Positions 206 through 39,964 of a DNA stretch of 64,000 bases are shown piece after piece. The notes below the pieces were generated by a model. That model was given only the letters and a program-made list of their open reading frames with translations. It was not told the origin of the DNA and did not search any database. Numbering within the stretch: position 1 is the stretch's first letter; each line of letters starts with the position of its first letter. The DNA is from a virus (lineage: Duplodnaviria > Caudoviricetes), in IMG/VR virus record IMGVR_UViG_3300035182_002389, positions 128,001 through 192,000 of that record. One strand, 5' to 3'. The translations under genes were made by a program, and so were the position numbers.

Positions 206-721
206 ATGGCCTTCGACCTGAGCTTCGGCTCTCTCGGCTCGGCTCGCGACAAGCTGGCGAGCTGGCACGACGAAAACAAGCTCGCCATCAGCCGCGCGAC
301 CGCCACCGCCGAGATCGGCGCTTCCGCCTTCGGCTTCGGCTGGCTCCACGGCCGCTACCCGAAGATGGACGTGTTCGGCGTCGACCTCTCGCTGCTCGCC
401 GGCGTCGGTCTCATCGGGCTCTCCTTCCTCGACAAGAAGGAAGAGGGGGAAGGCGGCGCGTACGGCCACCACCTCGCTTCGCTCGGCCAGGGCGCCCTCG
501 CGGTGTACCTCGCCAAGCTCGGCGCGGATTGGGGCGACAGCATGAACCCCGACTCGCCGCACTACTGCGGGATGTACACGCCGAGCGCCACGGCGCCCGC
601 GCAGTTCCAGCCCAAGGTCCCGCCGCCCGCCGCGGTCAAGGGCTACGACTACGCCCACACGGGCTTCAACGTCTCGACGGCCGACATCGGCCAGATGGCC
701 CAGCGCCGTAACTGGGGCTGA
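206..721 (+). CDS. Multi-pass membrane protein, candidate major virion membrane protein
   Basis: SD GGGAG; Gly-rich hydrophobic segments (IGASAFGFGWL, LSLLAGVGLIGLSFL, LGQGALAVYLAKLG); directly upstream of the capsid candidate. Confidence 0.65.
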   Translation: MAFDLSFGSLGSARDKLASWHDENKLAISRATATAEIGASAFGFGWLHGRYPKMDVFGVDLSLLAGVGLIGLSFLDKKEEGEGGAYGHHLASLGQGALAVYLAKLGADWGDSMNPDSPHYCGMYTPSATAPAQFQPKVPPPAAVKGYDYAHTGFNVSTADIGQMAQRRNWG

Positions 722-7884: not shown

Positions 7885-9042
7885 ATGAACCCCCTGCTCC
7901 TCGTTCTGATCGCTGGCGGCGCTGCTGCGGCCTACTTCCTCACGAAGAAGTCGACGCCCGTCGCCGACACGACCGGGCAGCCGGCGCAGCCCGATCAGCC
8001 TGTCACGCCCCCGGGGCCTGCTGTCAAGCCGAAGCCGGTCGCCGTGCTTCCGCAGGCGCTCGACGCGGGGCAGCGCAGCGCGCTCTACAAGTCCCTTCCG
8101 ACGATGGATCTCGTGGACGGTCCGACCAAGACGCCGTCGAACGCGTCCGGGACCATCGCCGTCTCGAAGATCAGCCTCAAGAAGAACGCCATCTCCAGCG
8201 AGGTGCGCACCGACGCGTTCCCCATCATCGCTTCGGCGAACCTCGGCGGCCCCGACGGCAAGGCGCACAAGACGACCATCCTCGCGACCATGACCAACGA
8301 ACCTGGCGGGATGGAGATCGCCGCAGTCGACGGCGCCGACCTCGCGCGCTCGATGCTGCTGCCGGGCAGCCGCTGGTTCCTCTTCATGGAACCGGGGCAG
8401 GCCACGACGCTCTCGAAGGAAGCGGGCGCGCCTGCCATCCCCGCGAACCTTCCGCCCATCGTCATGCCCGACACCGGCGCCCCGAAGCAGGCGCTCACAA
8501 ATCCGCTCACGAGCAGCAGTCACATCTCGAAGGACAACATCGTCTTCAAACCGATCTTCCTCATCCACGGACTGATCGGCGACAAGGCCAACACTCCGCT
8601 CGCTGACATCCCGGGCCCCACGGGCATCAACGCGCGCGCTGCCGCGACCCGCTCCGACTCGGCCTCGATGGTCACGTGGGCCGACCAGCTCATCTCCGAG
8701 GGCTACACCAAGGCCGCCCAGGCGCTCTTCGATCAAGCCTACGCGATCGGATGGCGGGCATCGCCGACCGATCACAAGGAGCGAATGATTCTCGGCGACA
8801 TGCTCGACGCGAGTGCGCCGAACTACGACGCGGCCTACATCGCAGACGGCGTCGTCTTCAGCAATGCGGGCGACGGATCGTTCAACCTCGACGATCTTCG
8901 CGCGCTCGTCTACGCGGCGAAGACCGTGCCTCTGCCGACGCAGGTCGGCCCGCTCAACGACGCTGCGGCGAGCTTCCTCGCTGCTGGCTACACGGGCCTC
9001 GCGGGCGAGCTGAGCAACCTCGCCAAGAGCATCGTGGGCTGA
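7885..9042 (+). CDS. N-anchored membrane protein, paralog of 6187
   Basis: MNPLLLVLIAGGAAAAYFLTKK; PQALD; PGGMEI..PGSRWFLFMEPG; two GY.AA repeats. Confidence 0.75.
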   Translation: MNPLLLVLIAGGAAAAYFLTKKSTPVADTTGQPAQPDQPVTPPGPAVKPKPVAVLPQALDAGQRSALYKSLPTMDLVDGPTKTPSNASGTIAVSKISLKKNAISSEVRTDAFPIIASANLGGPDGKAHKTTILATMTNEPGGMEIAAVDGADLARSMLLPGSRWFLFMEPGQATTLSKEAGAPAIPANLPPIVMPDTGAPKQALTNPLTSSSHISKDNIVFKPIFLIHGLIGDKANTPLADIPGPTGINARAAATRSDSASMVTWADQLISEGYTKAAQALFDQAYAIGWRASPTDHKERMILGDMLDASAPNYDAAYIADGVVFSNAGDGSFNLDDLRALVYAAKTVPLPTQVGPLNDAAASFLAAGYTGLAGELSNLAKSIVG

Positions 9043-17311: not shown

Positions 17312-17833
17312 ATGAGCGCAAAAGTCCAGCTTCTTCAGCTCGGCGTGCCAGAGCGACTCGTCGAGAAGACGGGGGCGCTCATCGGCAAGGGCACCGAAGG
17401 CGTCATCTACGCGCTCTCGGAGCACCGCATCCTCAAGGTCAACCTCACCGCTCCGCGCACGCAATCCATCGCCGCCGTCGCCAAACGTGCGAACAAGAGC
17501 AAGTGGTCCGCGCACATCTACGAGTACGGCCGGTGCGAACCACGAGGGTTCTGGTACACGAGCGAGCGACTCTACAAGGTGCCTGAGAGAGCGCGCGTGC
17601 TGCTCAACGTCATCGGCCTGTCCTACGTCGCGTGGAAGCGCGGGCGGATGACCAAAGCGGAGCACGACGAGCGCGTGAAGGGGGCCATCGAACGGATGCC
17701 TCCGCAGCTTCAGAGCATCGTGAAGAGCGCTCGCAAGGCGGGGTACGTCGACGTGCACGGCGCGAACGTCATGATCACAAAAGACGGCATCTACAAGTTC
17801 ATCGACCCGGAATCGATCTCACGCGTCGTCTGA
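17312..17833 (+). CDS. Minimal protein-kinase-like fold protein
   Basis: IGKGTEG Gly loop, ILK Lys, DVHGAN catalytic loop, FIDP Mg-binding Asp, all in 173 aa. Confidence 0.7.
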   Translation: MSAKVQLLQLGVPERLVEKTGALIGKGTEGVIYALSEHRILKVNLTAPRTQSIAAVAKRANKSKWSAHIYEYGRCEPRGFWYTSERLYKVPERARVLLNVIGLSYVAWKRGRMTKAEHDERVKGAIERMPPQLQSIVKSARKAGYVDVHGANVMITKDGIYKFIDPESISRVV

Positions 17834-35342: not shown

Positions 35343-36251
35343 ATGGTCAACAAGGCGGATCTCATCAAGTGGGTGCGCAAGGCAGTCGAGGTCGGCCGCA
35401 ACGGAGTCGTCGCCAACGCCTTCAAGATCATCCACGCATCGGTCGGCAACTCCGGCACCGAGGTCGAGGAGTGGAGCAGGCCGTTCGGCGAGATCGGCGA
35501 TCTTGCCCAGCAGATGATCGACACGATCAACCGTGACTCCGAAGGCATGGAGGAGCACACGGTCACGTACCACATCCTCCCCTTCTTCGGAGAGTCGACC
35601 AAGCCGCTCGGCCGCTACCCGGTCAAGATCGACAACATCAACTACAACGACCCGGAGACCAGCTCCCTTCTCCCCCAAGAAGGAGCGCACCCGAAGGGGC
35701 TGCTCGCCCAGAACCAGCGCCACCTCGAAGGGCTCTGGAAGCTCACGGCAGGCAGCATTCACGAGGCCATGCGTCGCCTCTCCGAAGAGAACGCGTCCTT
35801 GCGCGAGCAGGTCAAGAGCATGGGCGACATGCACCTCCAAATGGTGCAGATGCGAGAGGATCTCCTCGATCGCAAGCAGGAGCGCCAGATCAAGGCCGAG
35901 AGAGCTGCGTCTGCCGAGCACATGAAGACCATGCTCATCCAGCAGCTCCTGCCGTTCCTGCCCATCGTCGTGAACAAAATCCAAGGCAAACGAGTTCTGC
36001 CCGAAGCCATCCATCCCGACGTCGAGCAGTTCAAGGTCTTCCTCAGCGGAATCAAGGAGGACGAGCTGGGCGTCCTCGTTCAGACCTTCGGCCCGCGTCT
36101 CGCTCCGCTCATGGATCTCGCCATCAAGTACAAGAAGGAATACGAAGACAAGGCCAAGGCCCACTCCGATCGCGCAAGCGAGCTGATGCCTTCCATGCCC
36201 GGACCGGGACCTCTTCCTGGCTTCCCTGCGCCTCGGGGCCTCGGGAGCTGA
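35343..36251 (+). CDS. Coiled-coil protein with amphipathic helix
   Basis: QQLLPFLPIVVNKI..FKVFLSGIKEDEL..TFGPRLAPLMDLAIKYKKEYED. Confidence 0.7.
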   Translation: MVNKADLIKWVRKAVEVGRNGVVANAFKIIHASVGNSGTEVEEWSRPFGEIGDLAQQMIDTINRDSEGMEEHTVTYHILPFFGESTKPLGRYPVKIDNINYNDPETSSLLPQEGAHPKGLLAQNQRHLEGLWKLTAGSIHEAMRRLSEENASLREQVKSMGDMHLQMVQMREDLLDRKQERQIKAERAASAEHMKTMLIQQLLPFLPIVVNKIQGKRVLPEAIHPDVEQFKVFLSGIKEDELGVLVQTFGPRLAPLMDLAIKYKKEYEDKAKAHSDRASELMPSMPGPGPLPGFPAPRGLGS

Positions 36252-36549: not shown

Positions 36550-36564
36550 GACTTTCGACAAGCC
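36550..36564. promoter_or_regulatory. Palindromic motif GACTT-TCGAC-AAGCC
   Basis: Intergenic, upstream of the histone-like genes; TTGACA at 36584. Confidence 0.75.
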
Positions 36565-36677
36565 GACGCCTTAGACGTTGTGCTTGACAGCCGAAAATCA
36601 TGTATCGTGGTCCTCGTGCTGAGGCCAAAGGCCTCGCCTCCTTCCAAACCCGGAAGGCAAAGAAGGGACGGCCTCTC

Positions 36678-37220
36678 ATGGCGTGGACACTCGAAGGCAC
36701 CAAGAAGGCAATCGCGACGATCACCAAGCAGCTCAAGACGGGCAAGAACAAGGCGGGCAAGAAGCTCACCGCGTCCGGCCGCATGATGCTGGAGTGCGCC
36801 CTCGTCACGCAGCAGAACAACTTCGCGAAGCTCACGGGCCACCCGAAGGCCGCCCTCGCCGTCGGCGCCGGTAAGAAGTCGGCCAAGAAGAAGACCACGA
36901 AGAAGGCCGCGAAGAAGAAGGCCGCGAAGAAGAAGGCCGCGAAGAAGAAGGCCGCGAAGACCGTCGCCGGATCCTTCTCGGTCCCGAAGAAGACCGCGAA
37001 GAAGGCCGCGAAGAAGCGCCCGGCGAAGAAGACCGCGAAGAAGACCGCCAAGAAACGTCCGGCGAAGAAGACCGCGAAGAAGACCGCCAAGAAGCGTCCG
37101 GCGAAGAAGACCGCCAAGAAGCGTCCGGCGAAGAAGGCCGCCAAGAAACGCCCGGCGAAGAAGGCCAAGAAGAGCGCGAAGAAGACCAAGAAGAGCGCGA
37201 AGAAGTCGGCCAAGAAGTAG
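36678..37220 (+). CDS. Histone H1-like Lys/Ala-rich DNA-binding protein 1
   Basis: Tandem KKAAKK / AKKRPAKKT repeats after a short globular N-terminus. Confidence 0.8.
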   Translation: MAWTLEGTKKAIATITKQLKTGKNKAGKKLTASGRMMLECALVTQQNNFAKLTGHPKAALAVGAGKKSAKKKTTKKAAKKKAAKKKAAKKKAAKTVAGSFSVPKKTAKKAAKKRPAKKTAKKTAKKRPAKKTAKKTAKKRPAKKTAKKRPAKKAAKKRPAKKAKKSAKKTKKSAKKSAKK

Positions 37221-37264
37221 TCCAGGCCCCGCGCGTTCCACCCTCCCACGAAAGAGAGATCACG

Positions 37265-37501
37265 ATGGCGGCGAAGAAGAAGACGACGAAGAAGAGCGCG
37301 AAGAAGAGCCCCAAGCGCGCCAAGAGCGCCAAGGCGCCGCACGCTGCGAAGAAGGCCGCTGCGGCGAAGGTTCTGGAGAAGAACGGCGCGTCCAAGAAGA
37401 CGATGGCCTATCTCCAGAAGATGATCGGCAAGCTCCCGGCTGCGCACTCGGTCATCATCATCGAGTCCTGGCGGCGCCCCGCGAAGAAGCGCGCGAAGTA
37501 G
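37265..37501 (+). CDS. Histone H1-like basic protein 2
   Basis: MAAKKKTTKKSAKKSPKRAK. Confidence 0.75.
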   Translation: MAAKKKTTKKSAKKSPKRAKSAKAPHAAKKAAAAKVLEKNGASKKTMAYLQKMIGKLPAAHSVIIIESWRRPAKKRAK

Positions 37502-37553
37502 CTCGCGCCCCGAAACCCTCAGAGTCTGCCCTTACCGGCGCAAGGAGACGTTC

Positions 37554-38546
37554 ATGGCTGCGAAGAAGAGTGCGAAGAAGGCGAAGAAGGCGAAGAAGCC
37601 CGCCAAGGCCCGCAAGCCCGCCAAGGCCCGCAAGCCCGTCAAGGCTCACAAGACGGCGAAGAAGACCGCGAAGGCTCGGAAGCCTGCGAAGAAGACCGCG
37701 AAGCGCTCGAAGGCCACCATGAGCAAGCGCGACGCGCAGCTCAAGCGTCTGCTCGGCCTGCGCGCCTTCCACAAGCGTCAGGGCCACGACACGTCCGACA
37801 TGGACGCGAAGCTCGCCAAGATGATGCCGGGCAAGTGGGACGAGGCGGTCACCATCGCGAAGGTCGGCAAGCCGGCGAAGGCTCGCAAGCCGAAGTCGCG
37901 CAAGCCGAAGAAGGCCGCGAAGAAGTCGGCGAAAAAGTCCCCCAAGAAGTCGGCCAAGAAGAAGGCGCACCTCGGCTACACGCCGACCGGACGCCCGAAG
38001 CAGAAGCTCGACAAGAAGAGCCGTCGCTACAAGGCGGCCGTCATCAACGTCGCGAAGGCTCGCCTCTTCCGTCACACGAAGAAGCTCGTCGACGCCGGCG
38101 TCCTCACCCCCGACGAGGGGCGCAAGCTCGCGGGCGACATCGAGCTGGACTTCAGCAAGCTCGGCGCCGACCACCCGCTCGCCAAGGAAGCGGCGGCCAA
38201 GCTCGCGGCCCAGGAAGAGGCTCGCCTCAACTCCATCGCCGCCGAAGCGAAGCGTCGTGAAGGCATCCGCACCGGCCGAGCCGCACACGGTTCCGGCCGC
38301 ATGGCGACCGGCGGCAAGCGTGCTCTTCCGGCACGCCCCACGCGCCACCGCGGACCGAACGTCTCGGCGTCCTTCGGGCGCAGCGCGTCGACGGGCGTTC
38401 CGAACGTCTCCGCCGCGGCTCCCCACGGCCGTCTCATGACGAAGGCCGAGTTCGAGATCATGGACCGCAAACGTCGGGAGGCCGAGCGCCTGCCGCACTT
38501 CAAGATGGAAGGTGAGGAAAGCGAGCCCGTCACCATCCGCCGCTGA
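37554..38546 (+). CDS. Histone H1-like basic protein 3 with internal helical domains
   Basis: AKKAKKPAKARKP repeats; KKSPKK motif; GGAG SD. Confidence 0.75.
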   Translation: MAAKKSAKKAKKAKKPAKARKPAKARKPVKAHKTAKKTAKARKPAKKTAKRSKATMSKRDAQLKRLLGLRAFHKRQGHDTSDMDAKLAKMMPGKWDEAVTIAKVGKPAKARKPKSRKPKKAAKKSAKKSPKKSAKKKAHLGYTPTGRPKQKLDKKSRRYKAAVINVAKARLFRHTKKLVDAGVLTPDEGRKLAGDIELDFSKLGADHPLAKEAAAKLAAQEEARLNSIAAEAKRREGIRTGRAAHGSGRMATGGKRALPARPTRHRGPNVSASFGRSASTGVPNVSAAAPHGRLMTKAEFEIMDRKRREAERLPHFKMEGEESEPVTIRR

Positions 38547-38616: not shown

Positions 38617-38805
38617 ATGGACGCAGCCGATCGGCCCATCCTTGCGCGGCTCATGGATGGAACTCGTATGACCCCGAACGGCTTCTTTCTTGGCGCCGTG
38701 TCTGGCAGCGTCCTCGCCGTCCTCGGACTGCTCCTCCAACGCAAGCGCATCCTCGAACGCGAGCGAGACGTCGAAGCCTCCATCGAGGCCTCCGTTCCGC
38801 GGTGA
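38617..38805 (+). CDS. Small TM protein with RPIL leader
   Basis: MDAADRPILARLMDG..TM..RKR; TATCAT -10-like box upstream. Confidence 0.6.
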   Translation: MDAADRPILARLMDGTRMTPNGFFLGAVSGSVLAVLGLLLQRKRILERERDVEASIEASVPR

Positions 38806-38836
38806 CGTTCGATAAAGAGGTGATTAGGATGGCGAG

Positions 38837-39964
38837 ATGACCATCTTCCGCTGCGTCGCGTGCGAGGCGCTCACGCAGGTGTCGTTCCCTCACTGCCGCA
38901 CGTGTGGCACGACCAACGGCTACCACAAAGCGCCGAAGGGGACACGGATGCCCAGACCCAAGCCCGAAGGCGCCGGCGGAGCGCCCGGCATGGGAGGATT
39001 CGGCGATTTTGGCGGAGGGTTTGGCGGCGTCGATGACGCGCCCCTTGACCTCGATCCGGTGGGCGGCGCTCCTGGGTTCGATCCGCCCGGACTTGGCGGA
39101 CCGCCCGGCCCAACCGGCAAGAAGATCCGAAACACAGCAGGCTACGAAGAGCCCGACAAGAAGCCGCGCGCCGTATCCATCGGCCGCGTCGCCGTGCAAA
39201 AGCGAAGGCGCCTCGCGACCGGAATCAAGCAGCTCGATCGCGTTCTCGGAGGCAGCGAGCAGAAAGGGTTCGGCATCGTCACCGGGTCCTCTGTCATGGT
39301 CGATGGAAGCCCCGGCATCGGTAAATCCACGCTGCTCCTTCAAGCGGCTGCGAAGCTTGCGCTGCAAGGACCCGTCCTCGTCGCAACCGGCGAGGAGGCC
39401 ATCGACGACATCAAAGAGCGCGCGCTGCGTCTGAAGATCCTCAAGGATCCGACGGTCCGAAAGAACCTGCTCCTCGTCGAGATGACCGACACTGACGATC
39501 TCATCGAGATCATCGAGAAGCGAAAGCCCATCGCCGTCATCATGGACTCGGTGCAGATGTTCATCTCAGAGAATGCCGTCGGTCAAGCCGGCTCCGAACC
39601 TCAGTGCAAGTACATCCTGAATGAGCTGATCAAGAAGACGACAAAGCCCATGGGCATCGCTCTCTTCATCGTCTCGCAGGTGACCAAGGACGGCGATGCG
39701 CGAGGTCCCAACACCATCGCGCACATGGTCGACGCACACCTCAAGTTCGACCGCGAGAACCCCAAGGATCTCTCCGACGTGAAGCGCCGCCTCTGGCAAA
39801 AGAAGAACCGCAACGGCAACATCGCCATCACGGGCCGCTTCTGGATGACCGACAAGGGGCTGCGAGGTCTCAAGCACAAAGACGTTGTCGACTTCACAGC
39901 TCCGCGCAAGGAGCCGAAGATCAAAAAATCCGCGCGCGATCACGGACACAGCAAGGCGGCTTGA
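38837..39964 (+). CDS. radA: RadA/Sms-like recombination ATPase lacking the C-terminal Lon-like domain
   Basis: N-terminal CxxC..CxxC zinc ribbon, ATGIKQLDRVLGG, Walker A GSPGIGKST, Walker B IMDSVQ, GP..IAHMVD, KNRNG (canonical KNRFG). Confidence 0.85.
   Translation: MTIFRCVACEALTQVSFPHCRTCGTTNGYHKAPKGTRMPRPKPEGAGGAPGMGGFGDFGGGFGGVDDAPLDLDPVGGAPGFDPPGLGGPPGPTGKKIRNTAGYEEPDKKPRAVSIGRVAVQKRRRLATGIKQLDRVLGGSEQKGFGIVTGSSVMVDGSPGIGKSTLLLQAAAKLALQGPVLVATGEEAIDDIKERALRLKILKDPTVRKNLLLVEMTDTDDLIEIIEKRKPIAVIMDSVQMFISENAVGQAGSEPQCKYILNELIKKTTKPMGIALFIVSQVTKDGDARGPNTIAHMVDAHLKFDRENPKDLSDVKRRLWQKKNRNGNIAITGRFWMTDKGLRGLKHKDVVDFTAPRKEPKIKKSARDHGHSKAA

Follow-up and report, generated by a model that had tools for sequence, protein, structure and literature searches.

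Lysine/alanine-rich proteins encoded side by side in a 202-kb virus of bacteria: candidates for DNA coating or compaction

Three adjacent genes for polycationic proteins

The window analysed here is a stretch of 64,000 nt (positions 128,001 to 192,000 of IMG/VR record IMGVR_UViG_3300035182_002389) from the 202-kb genome of an uncultured virus with a bacterial host. It contains three adjacent genes on the + strand, here called A, B and C, which an earlier note made from the sequence alone had described as three tandem histone H1-like genes at 36678-38546. These coordinates match the genes exactly, beginning with the start codon of A and ending with the stop codon of C. The genes are listed with the surrounding features in Table 1.

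Table 1. Features at and around the A-B-C locus (window coordinates)
Feature	Position	Strand	Description
Conserved 302-aa protein	35343..36251	+	Upstream synteny anchor; orthologues 47-54% identical in L011 and L014
Promoter-like block	36550..36608	+	Operator GACTTTCGACAAGCC, then CTTGACAGC, 11 nt, TG, TATCGT
Hairpin GAGGCC-AAA-GGCCTC	36621..36635	+	Perfect 6-bp stem; presumed 5' leader of gene A
Gene A	36678..37220	+	180 aa; 64-aa helical-hairpin N-domain and 116-aa Lys/Ala/Pro tail (KKAAKK, AKKRPAKKT repeats)
Gene B	37265..37501	+	78 aa; MAAKK... N-tail, short non-repetitive core, RRPAKKRAK end
Gene C	37554..38546	+	330 aa; two Lys/Arg tracts (1-55, 103-140) flanking helical domains
Single-pass membrane protein	38617..38805	+	62 aa; between C and the ATPase; strain substitutions 4/4 synonymous
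RadA/Sms-like RecA-fold ATPase	38837..39964	+	Downstream synteny anchor; zinc ribbon, Lon domain absent

All three proteins are strongly basic, with pI values of 11.3-11.9. Protein A is 36% lysine and 22% alanine (pI 11.9, net charge +69), protein B is 27% lysine (net +23), and protein C is 19% lysine and 10% arginine (net +68). Lysine thus accounts for 19-36% of these proteins, against a background of 5.1% across the gene set of the genome. The motifs said to characterize them are present, with three copies of KKAAKK and five of AKKRPAKK in A, and AKARKP repeats in C. The SPK[KR] motif also occurs, in a single copy each in B (SPKR) and C (SPKK) only. No paralogy was detected among A, B and C outside the basic tracts.

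Since the tracts are encoded by simple AAG-rich DNA, the three reading frames might be chance open frames across a repeat. The DNA is indeed repetitive, with periods of 12-66 nt, and assemblies break or misjoin within the repeat. Against this reading, GC3 is 0.90 in A, 0.94 in B and 0.89 in C, and is so high in the coding frame only; the tracts run in frame into non-repetitive domains under purifying selection; and equivalent genes are found in relatives. In the N-domain of A, comparison with two relatives gives 11 synonymous and three non-synonymous changes, and 12 of the 13 listed strain substitutions in gene C are synonymous (10 of 10 in the folded part). The GC3 and substitution data refute the chance-frame reading in practice, and its probability is negligible. 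A, B and C are genuine genes, and the N-domain of A and gene C are under purifying selection.

Shine-Dalgarno-like sites lie upstream of B and C, and 97% of the lysine codons are AAG, compared with 88% genome-wide. The AAG bias and the long conserved leader are compatible with high expression. Upstream of gene A, the core formed by CTTGACAGC and TA(G/T)(A/C)(C/G)T is unique to the promoter-like block within the 202-kb genome. The operator word GACTTTCGACAAGCC, on the other hand, has about 40 copies genome-wide, and as a genome-wide motif it does not mark the A-B-C unit as "late". In the related contigs L010, L011 and L014 the small basic gene is preceded by the same promoter-like layout, which is also found in L001 (88% identical); it is kept across relatives although the basic proteins cannot be aligned. 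The stem of the leader hairpin is retained in L001, where the loop alone differs. A promoter and terminator scan found no canonical sigma-70 promoter and no terminator on the + strand, and no RNA data carrying the genome were found among public runs. Sediment and microbial-mat samples do contain the genome.

A slot for basic proteins in related viruses

Strongly basic proteins occupy the same place in four sequenced relatives and, going by gene lengths alone, in two more. The slot was seen in L010, L011 (also L012 and L013), L014 and, partially, L015, and in the two contigs assessed by gene lengths. It is bordered upstream by an orthologous protein of 302-310 aa, whose copy in the present virus gave no Pfam or PHROG match, and downstream by a transmembrane protein and a Lon-less RadA-like ATPase. 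The transmembrane protein is 60 aa long at the equivalent place in L011, L012 and L014. The ATPase matches the KaiC-type ATPase (E 4e-11) and AAA_25 in Pfam and falls within a clade of seven Lon-less homologues (51-68% identity). After the ATPase come two beta-rich paralogues and then fibre genes, in the five contigs with a full gene table. The slot lies within a co-directional block leading into fibre and vertex genes. The conservation of a basic-protein slot across relatives is a new observation.

A full pair of basic proteins is present in three relatives and consists of a small protein of 80-120 aa and a large one of 200-221 aa. The complete proteins carry net charges of +28 to +45, with +33 to +45 for the small one. 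Gene B occupies the slot of the small basic protein and gene C that of the large one; neither B against the small proteins nor C against the large ones gave a significant match (HMMER, hhalign; probability 0.2). An alignment by eye of B and C to the modules of the relatives was unsupported by either program and was set aside. Gene A has no counterpart in L011 or L014. Only the B/C slot is conserved; gene A was added locally and is confined to this virus and those most closely related to it.

The basic proteins of the relatives share a 35-aa module, (S/T)W.RF.K.H..KG.T.K....YR..GHGKKK. In a profile search this module did not match A, B or C, and in the present genome the profile found only a different protein, at genome positions 192954-193637 (E 2.6e-4). 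The best full-length PDB match of the module was HMGB2 box B, which is non-significant at E 0.18.

To speak of three tandem genes understates what the genome encodes. At least four further K/A-tract proteins lie at genome positions 126658, 65556, 192954 and 59425, which brings the number of such proteins to at least seven. Outside the trio, a K/A-tract protein is encoded directly upstream of the jelly-roll gene. K/A tracts are borne by several otherwise unrelated proteins of this genome.

Orphan folded domains and likeness to known DNA-binding proteins

Two of the proteins had been thought to contain folded segments, and AF2 models made from single sequences give confident helices for both A and C. 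Residues 5-53 of A are predicted to form a helical hairpin (helices 5-21 and 32-53, pLDDT >90), and C is predicted to contain helices at 56-90 and 154-245 (pLDDT ~90) and also at 297-312. B has a non-repetitive core too, at about residues 35-70.

Searches for homologues of these domains returned little. Neither A, B nor C had a match in Pfam (up to E 10), PHROGs or NCBIfam, Foldseek with the AF2 models of A and C gave nothing at E <1, and a sequence search of the PDB returned low-complexity noise only. An Atlas search yielded nothing usable; in its feature search the neighbourhood of A included a cluster with HC2 in 32% of its members (score 0.80), which is a sub-threshold lead only. A word search with residues 140-330 of C found no match, and the sole match of residues 56-330 among 1.84 billion representative proteins was an identical 81-aa fragment. 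Single-protein scans of viral contigs for relatives were unsuccessful, an alignment scan found only an unrelated AT-rich phage, and no relatives were found among genome contigs and GenBank phages.

The N-domain of A matched only two near-identical fragments, with 98% and 96% protein identity. Compared with L001, it has 95.8% nucleotide identity, with seven synonymous changes to one non-synonymous, and the neighbouring gene is 79% identical. In L001 and L003 the N-domain appears fused to ribosomal protein L11 or to a bacterial chromosome; both fusions were read as assembly chimeras because both breaks fall within the AAGAAG tract. The domain boundary of A reads AVGAG. A reading of this sequence as a glycine-ended leader was set aside; one relative has AVGG and another, L003, has AVGP.

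The C-terminal domain of the linker histones H1 and H5 compacts DNA, which it binds irrespective of sequence. It resembles A, B and C in being a long disordered Lys/Ala/Pro tract with KKAAKK/PAKK-type repeats and very high positive charge. Unlike these proteins, H1 and H5 have a GH1 winged-helix globular domain, where AF2 shows only helical hairpins and bundles in A and C. A search for the GH1 domain (PF00538) across the whole 202-kb genome, at E up to 10, was negative. The description "H1-like" therefore holds for composition and fails for family membership: A, B and C resemble H1 in composition alone, and their folded parts are orphan helical domains. A further difference is the scarcity of SPKK, whose one copy in C reads SAKK in contigs from other runs, at a site in a run of lysines to which contigs from other organisms align as well. 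KKAAKK/PAKK-type motifs have been described as characteristic of H1/H5, and PAKK/KAAK-type tracts as the DNA-binding element of HupB and H1/H5 (PMC5676037). The claim that such tails bind DNA is thus sound, and A, B and C are polycations of this PAKK/KAAK type (PMC5676037).

In the actinobacterial proteins HupB/MDP1, Ku and TopA, a low-complexity Lys/Ala/Pro tail is needed for stable DNA binding and compaction (PMC5676037; PMC5974015, PMC10810275). There the tail is joined to a known fold (HU, Ku or topoisomerase), whereas the viral proteins lack an HU domain; HupB-type tails also belong to proteins of the bacterial world, and A, B and C are a virus-encoded, multi-gene set. There is also a likeness in layout to chlamydial Hc1 and Hc2, small proteins that condense a whole genome and, like the trio, combine a short helical domain with a Lys/Ala-rich tail. 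However, searches of the genome with the Hc1 (PF07432) and Hc2 (PF07382) profiles gave no match at E up to 10. The same was true of HU (PF00216, E up to 10), and the HMG box (PF00505) also had no match in the genome. No known DNA-binding fold was detected in the trio, and this weighs against a role in coating DNA.

Proposed DNA coating and its alternatives

Because a pair of such proteins is retained at this position in relatives, A, B and C most likely coat or compact DNA. We tentatively favour a reading in which they are virus-encoded polycations that act on DNA as one unit expressed from a conserved promoter, with a link to packaging. DNA binding is inferred from the composition of the proteins and from analogues already known, while a place in the virion and the packaging link are speculative. 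Mechanistically, A, B and C would be transcribed as a single unit from their dedicated promoter, and their long, mostly disordered Lys/Ala/Pro tracts would bind the phosphate backbone without sequence preference, as do the H1 C-terminal domain and the PAKK/KAAK tail of mycobacterial HupB. The small helical domains may contribute self-association or docking, and the trio, probably with the four other K/A-tract proteins, would neutralize and compact the 202-kb DNA. The position of the same-slot basic proteins beside the fibre/vertex block fits a role in genome handling. Since this block includes a membrane protein, a RadA-like ring ATPase and fibre/vertex genes, the likeliest action would be in genome packaging or in a virion core.

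The same chemistry could also serve inside the infected cell, where unpackaged A, B and C could compact and silence the host nucleoid, or organize a condensate or replication factory around viral DNA. Chlamydial Hc1 compacts the nucleoid when made in E. coli, a precedent for host shut-off. The trio's operator-controlled promoter is of a type that also precedes many non-structural genes, the folded domains diverge fast between relatives, as expected at a host interface, and the genome encodes a small SET lysine methyltransferase near another K-rich protein, which recalls chromatin-directed enzymes. However, the slot sits in a block running to fibre and vertex genes rather than among replication genes, and seven such proteins seem beyond the needs of host shut-off; we consider an intracellular role unlikely, though a serious alternative. 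Phosphorylation of A, B and C had also been proposed, by a gene called kinase 17312; its best match is Kinase-PolyVal at E 0.18, and there is no significant kinase match, so the proposal rests on little and is a weak idea.

It is also conceivable that the tracts bind a polyanion other than DNA, such as inner-membrane lipids (as a tether between the membrane and DNA or capsid), RNA or ribosomes, polyphosphate, or envelope polymers at entry or lysis. Lys/Ala-rich tails have also been described on lipid-droplet, polyphosphate or heparan-sulphate binders; the genome has many membrane proteins, small transmembrane genes flank the trio, and K/A tracts are carried by several unrelated proteins. The lack of a membrane anchor, signal peptide or enzyme domain in A, B and C argues against this, as does the immediate conserved neighbour, a DNA-dependent RecA-fold ATPase, and we regard such targets as distinctly unlikely. 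As a special case of virion packaging, the proteins could be co-injected and screen the entering DNA against restriction enzymes, CRISPR or other sensors. Rapid sequence turnover with position and charge kept would fit such an arms race, but selection within the species is strongly purifying and no match to an anti-defence family was found (PADLOC lay outside the search). Of the functional alternatives this shield is the least probable.

A more specific version of the favoured DNA-coating reading is that the basic proteins, the 60-aa membrane protein and the Lon-less RadA-like ATPase together package and condense the genome in a new lineage of bacterial viruses that are very large, tailless and membrane-containing. 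The RecA-fold ATPase would then replace the FtsK/HerA motor, and the DNA, on entry or at rest, would be a protein-condensed, chromatin-like core, possibly SET-modified. We consider this combination improbable. If it were true, a virus of bacteria would have a core of the kind known from adenoviruses or chloroviruses. A terminase, FtsK and an A32-type packaging ATPase were all undetectable in the genome, so the packaging machinery is unconventional in any case. For the FtsK/HerA (A32-type) motor, conservation across all of Varidnaviria has been claimed (PMC13552765).

Comparison with other viruses is instructive here. Adenoviruses and giant viruses of eukaryotes are known to have cores condensed by protein. 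In adenoviruses, several basic viral proteins (VII, V and mu) condense the genome within a jelly-roll capsid; they are Arg-rich, cleaved by the viral protease and proven virion components. The trio likewise comprises several different virus-encoded basic proteins. In contrast, it is Lys-rich, and A, B and C had no Pfam match to the adenovirus core families. PBCV-1 is also large, with an internal membrane, and several basic virion proteins (A437L, A278L, A282L and others), present in hundreds to thousands of copies, neutralize its DNA (PMC3281028). Its host, however, is eukaryotic and its proteins are unrelated (MC1-like, kinase fusions), whereas the virus described here has a bacterial host. 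For prokaryotic membrane-containing viruses, the literature we found reports only host DNA-binding proteins in particles, with uncertain status (NO16, PMC13552765; STIV, PMC10551542). If the DNA-coating reading is true, a lineage with a polycation operon beside its structural genes and genomes reaching 200 kb would provide the first candidate case of "chromatin" encoded by a bacterial virus, and would bear on how so large a genome is fitted into a membrane vesicle.

The quantities involved can be estimated from charge. Full neutralization by the trio alone would require a protein mass equal to the DNA mass, which counts against DNA coating. In phages in general, small cations and polyamines are considered to neutralize the packaged DNA, and evidence for a large contribution from basic proteins is lacking (PMC3281028); this phage-wide pattern also weighs against the coating reading. 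For partial neutralization, approximately 630-1,270 copies each of A, B and C would correspond to 25-50% of the genome charge. These copy numbers are plausible; in PBCV-1, small basic proteins are packaged at approximately 2,000-2,700 copies (PMC3281028).

The lysine-rich genes and their proteins

The earlier note placed three tandem histone H1-like genes at window 36678-38546, and three ORFs, A, B and C, lie exactly there. The window covers bases 128001-192000 of a single 202,518-bp contig (65% GC), classed as a virus record whose completeness is estimated at 94%. Protein A is 36% Lys and 22% Ala, with a pI of 11.9 and a net charge of +69; B is 27% Lys (net +23), and C is 19% Lys and 10% Arg (net +68), the genome background being 5.1% Lys in the GC3-filtered gene set. 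The motifs quoted for these proteins (KKAAKK, AKKRPAKKT, AKARKP and SPK(K/R)) are present, the last a single time in each of B and C. In the underlying DNA, the tracts consist of tandem repeats that are imperfect and have periods of 12 to 66 nt. A, B and C are real genes, and the suggestion that the ORFs are an artefact is in practice already excluded: GC3 in the reading frame is 0.90, 0.94 and 0.89, respectively, AGAGAG and AAGGAGA sites lie a few bases 5' of the ATG of B and C, and AAG makes up 97% of the Lys codons of the trio versus 88% across the genome.

Selection within the species is clearly purifying. Two short metagenome contigs carry the N-domain of A. One, L001, is 88% identical to the window over the shared 560 nt, and the match of the other, L003, is confined to the N-domain segment (93%). 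Over codons 1-63 of A, L001 has seven synonymous differences and one non-synonymous, and L003 four and two; in L001 the N-domain is 95.8% identical versus only 79% for the upstream gene. When gene C was compared with a strain about 97% identical, represented by contigs from other sequencing runs, 12 of the 13 listed substitutions were synonymous, as were all 10 in its non-repetitive part. The sole non-synonymous change converts the only SPKK of C to SAKK, a call that is tentative because the lysine tract there also recruits contigs of other organisms. Contig depth over the Lys/Ala tracts (36870-37220, 37550-37700 and 37870-37960) is 10- to 100-fold above that of the flanks in four sediment/mat metagenomes, indicating that coding repeats of the AAGAAGGCC type are commonly carried by many other members of these communities. 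L001 (1-774) links the N-domain of A to the C-terminal domain of ribosomal protein L11, and L003 (1-7251) links it to part of a bacterial chromosome (sdhC-like, GT39, TetR, RND pump); because the break lies within the AAGAAG tract in each case, these contigs are probably assembly chimeras.

Single-sequence AF2 models give protein A a helix-turn-helix hairpin (residues 5-21 and 32-53, pLDDT >90) with a low-confidence, partly helical tail, and protein C confident helices at 56-90, 154-245 and 297-312 with disordered basic tracts between them. The models of A and C matched no solved structure, and Pfam, PHROG and NCBIfam gave no family for any of the three proteins, even at E = 10. Linker histone, Hc1, HC2, HMG box and HU profiles had no match anywhere in the 202-kb genome, so the description "histone H1-like" fits the composition of the tails but not the family. 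Among 1.84 billion representative proteins, C had no relative except one identical fragment. The N-domain of A matched two near-identical fragments and nothing else.

Features of the lysine-rich genes and their surroundings (genome, coordinates of the whole contig; L010, L011 and L014, contigs of related viruses)
Feature	Position	Strand	Description
Gene A	window 36678-37220	+	ORF, 180 aa
Gene B	window 37265-37501	+	ORF, 78 aa
Gene C	window 37554-38546	+	ORF, 330 aa
RadA/Sms-like RecA-fold ATPase	window 38837-39964		downstream of C; zinc ribbon, Lon domain absent
Promoter-like layout	window 36550-36608; L010 128-190; L011 ~8480-8545; L014 ~8455-8520		upstream of basic-protein genes
~35-aa module in relatives	L010 668-1270; L011 8608-9716; L014 8566-9576		
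K-rich protein	genome 126658-127758		366 aa, +73, long AKKPAK tract
K-rich protein	genome 65556-66506		316 aa, +63
K-rich protein	genome 192954-193637 (window 64954-65637, just beyond window end)		227 aa, +65; 0.8 kb from SET-domain gene
K-rich protein	genome 59425-60126		Lys tract is C-terminal tail only
SET-domain protein	genome 194458-194811 (window 66458-66811, beyond window end)		117 aa; PF00856, E 1.6e-14

A conserved slot beside a RadA-like ATPase

The best seven homologues of the ATPase are 51-68% identical, form one clade without the Lon domain, and sit on contigs of up to 160,779 nt. DNA from four of these relatives (L010; L011 with L012 and L013; L014; L015) and two gene tables were compared. 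The recurring order is an orthologue of a 302-aa protein (35343-36251), a small basic protein (80-120 aa, Lys 25-30%, net +33 to +45), a large basic protein (200-221 aa, net +28 to +37), a 60-aa membrane protein, the ATPase, two beta-rich paralogues (29-35% identity to gene 40068 of this virus) and fibre genes. Given this order, B and C fill a conserved slot. The full basic pair is present in L010, L011 and L014; L015 and one of the gene tables begin inside or just 5' of the large basic gene. In L011 and L014, whose sequence extends far enough upstream, the orthologues of the 302-aa protein are 47-54% identical, and a counterpart at the position of A is absent. The ~60-aa membrane protein always precedes the Lon-less ATPase (38617-39964; L010-L015), which in L010 carries ~110 additional, Lys-rich residues at its N terminus.

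The small and large basic proteins of the relatives have in common a ~35-aa module, (S/T)W.RF.K.H..KG.T.K....YR..GHGKKK, for which the top hit over its full length in solved structures was HMGB2 box B, a non-significant match (two gaps, E 0.18). In this genome the module profile finds the K-rich protein at 192954-193637 (E 2.6e-4) and matches neither B nor C, and neither HMMER nor hhalign linked C to the large basic protein of the relatives. Position, size class, charge, a MAAKK-type N-terminus and the promoter are thus kept in the slot while sequence is not, which means that the proteins diverged very quickly or that analogues replaced them.

A six-frame scan for further long Lys tracts brought the K-rich proteins of the genome to seven, including A, B and C. 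The gene at 126658-127758 stops 242 nt short of the window, and immediately downstream of it is the jelly-roll gene (window 206-721). For the SET protein, the obvious substrate candidates are the lysine-rich proteins that the virus itself encodes. The earlier note also proposed testing phosphorylation by a kinase, "17312"; in this ORF (17312-17833), IGKGTEG resembles a glycine loop and a DVHGAN motif is present, but there is no significant kinase or other Pfam match (best Kinase-PolyVal, E 0.18). With the SPKK site apparently not conserved either, phosphoregulation is conceivable but unsupported.

Proposed DNA compaction and its alternatives

Condensation of DNA by Lys/Ala-rich polycations is familiar from H1, HupB/MDP1, Hc1/Hc2, adenovirus cores and chlorovirus virions, with which the trio would share this principle. 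Three aspects are new. The principle is met here in a lineage of bacterial viruses of very large size; the genes are organised around a conserved slot that has a dedicated promoter and adjoins a RadA-like ATPase lacking Lon, in a genome that encodes seven proteins of this type; and the folded domains are orphans. The literature searched contained no account of phages encoding sets of H1-like proteins; what is reported from particles of NO16 (PMC13552765) and STIV (PMC10551542) is limited to DNA-binding proteins of the host, whose status is uncertain.

Judged by their composition, the three proteins would be expected to bind any polyanion, DNA being the obvious one. PAKK/KAAK-type tails, typical of H1/H5, give HupB stable DNA binding in vivo (PMC5676037). 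DNA as the target would also suit the conserved neighbour, a predicted DNA-dependent ATPase, and a block that continues into structural genes; binding to a different polyanion, for example RNA, polyphosphate or the inner membrane, is unlikely. Our favoured reading, held tentatively, is that the trio neutralises and compacts DNA in connection with packaging. It is favoured in part because no terminase, FtsK or A32-type (Pox_A32) ATPase is detectable in the genome, though the jelly-roll realm is considered to have a conserved packaging ATPase (PMC13552765); for the same reason the RadA-like ATPase is a candidate DNA-handling protein of virion assembly. That the trio may be present in the virion is suggested only by gene position. 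Between 630 and 1,270 copies each of A, B and C would neutralise 25-50% of the genome charge, which falls within the copy numbers reported for the basic proteins that chlorovirus PBCV-1 packages (PMC3281028). Compaction of host or viral DNA within the cell by unpackaged proteins, the host side of which the earlier note had raised as chromatin shut-down, is possible though rather doubtful, and a role as a co-injected shield against host defence is quite improbable.

A promoter-like region and a recurrent operator

Upstream of the basic-protein genes, this virus and distant relatives have a common layout of an operator-like palindrome, ~20 nt, CTTGACAGC, 11 nt, and TG followed by TA(G/T)(A/C)(C/G)T. 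The CTTGACAGC...TAnnnT part occurs once in the 202-kb genome. Its TTGACA-to-hexamer spacing of only 13 nt is at odds with a standard sigma-70 promoter. The operator word has ~40 copies genome-wide (for example, at window 16630, 27655, 36550, 52514 and 56030). It is a 15-bp palindrome, GACTTG-CGA-CAAGTC, with variants, located just 5' of -10-like hexamers and gene starts on both strands, and looks like a putative binding site of a virus-wide regulator.
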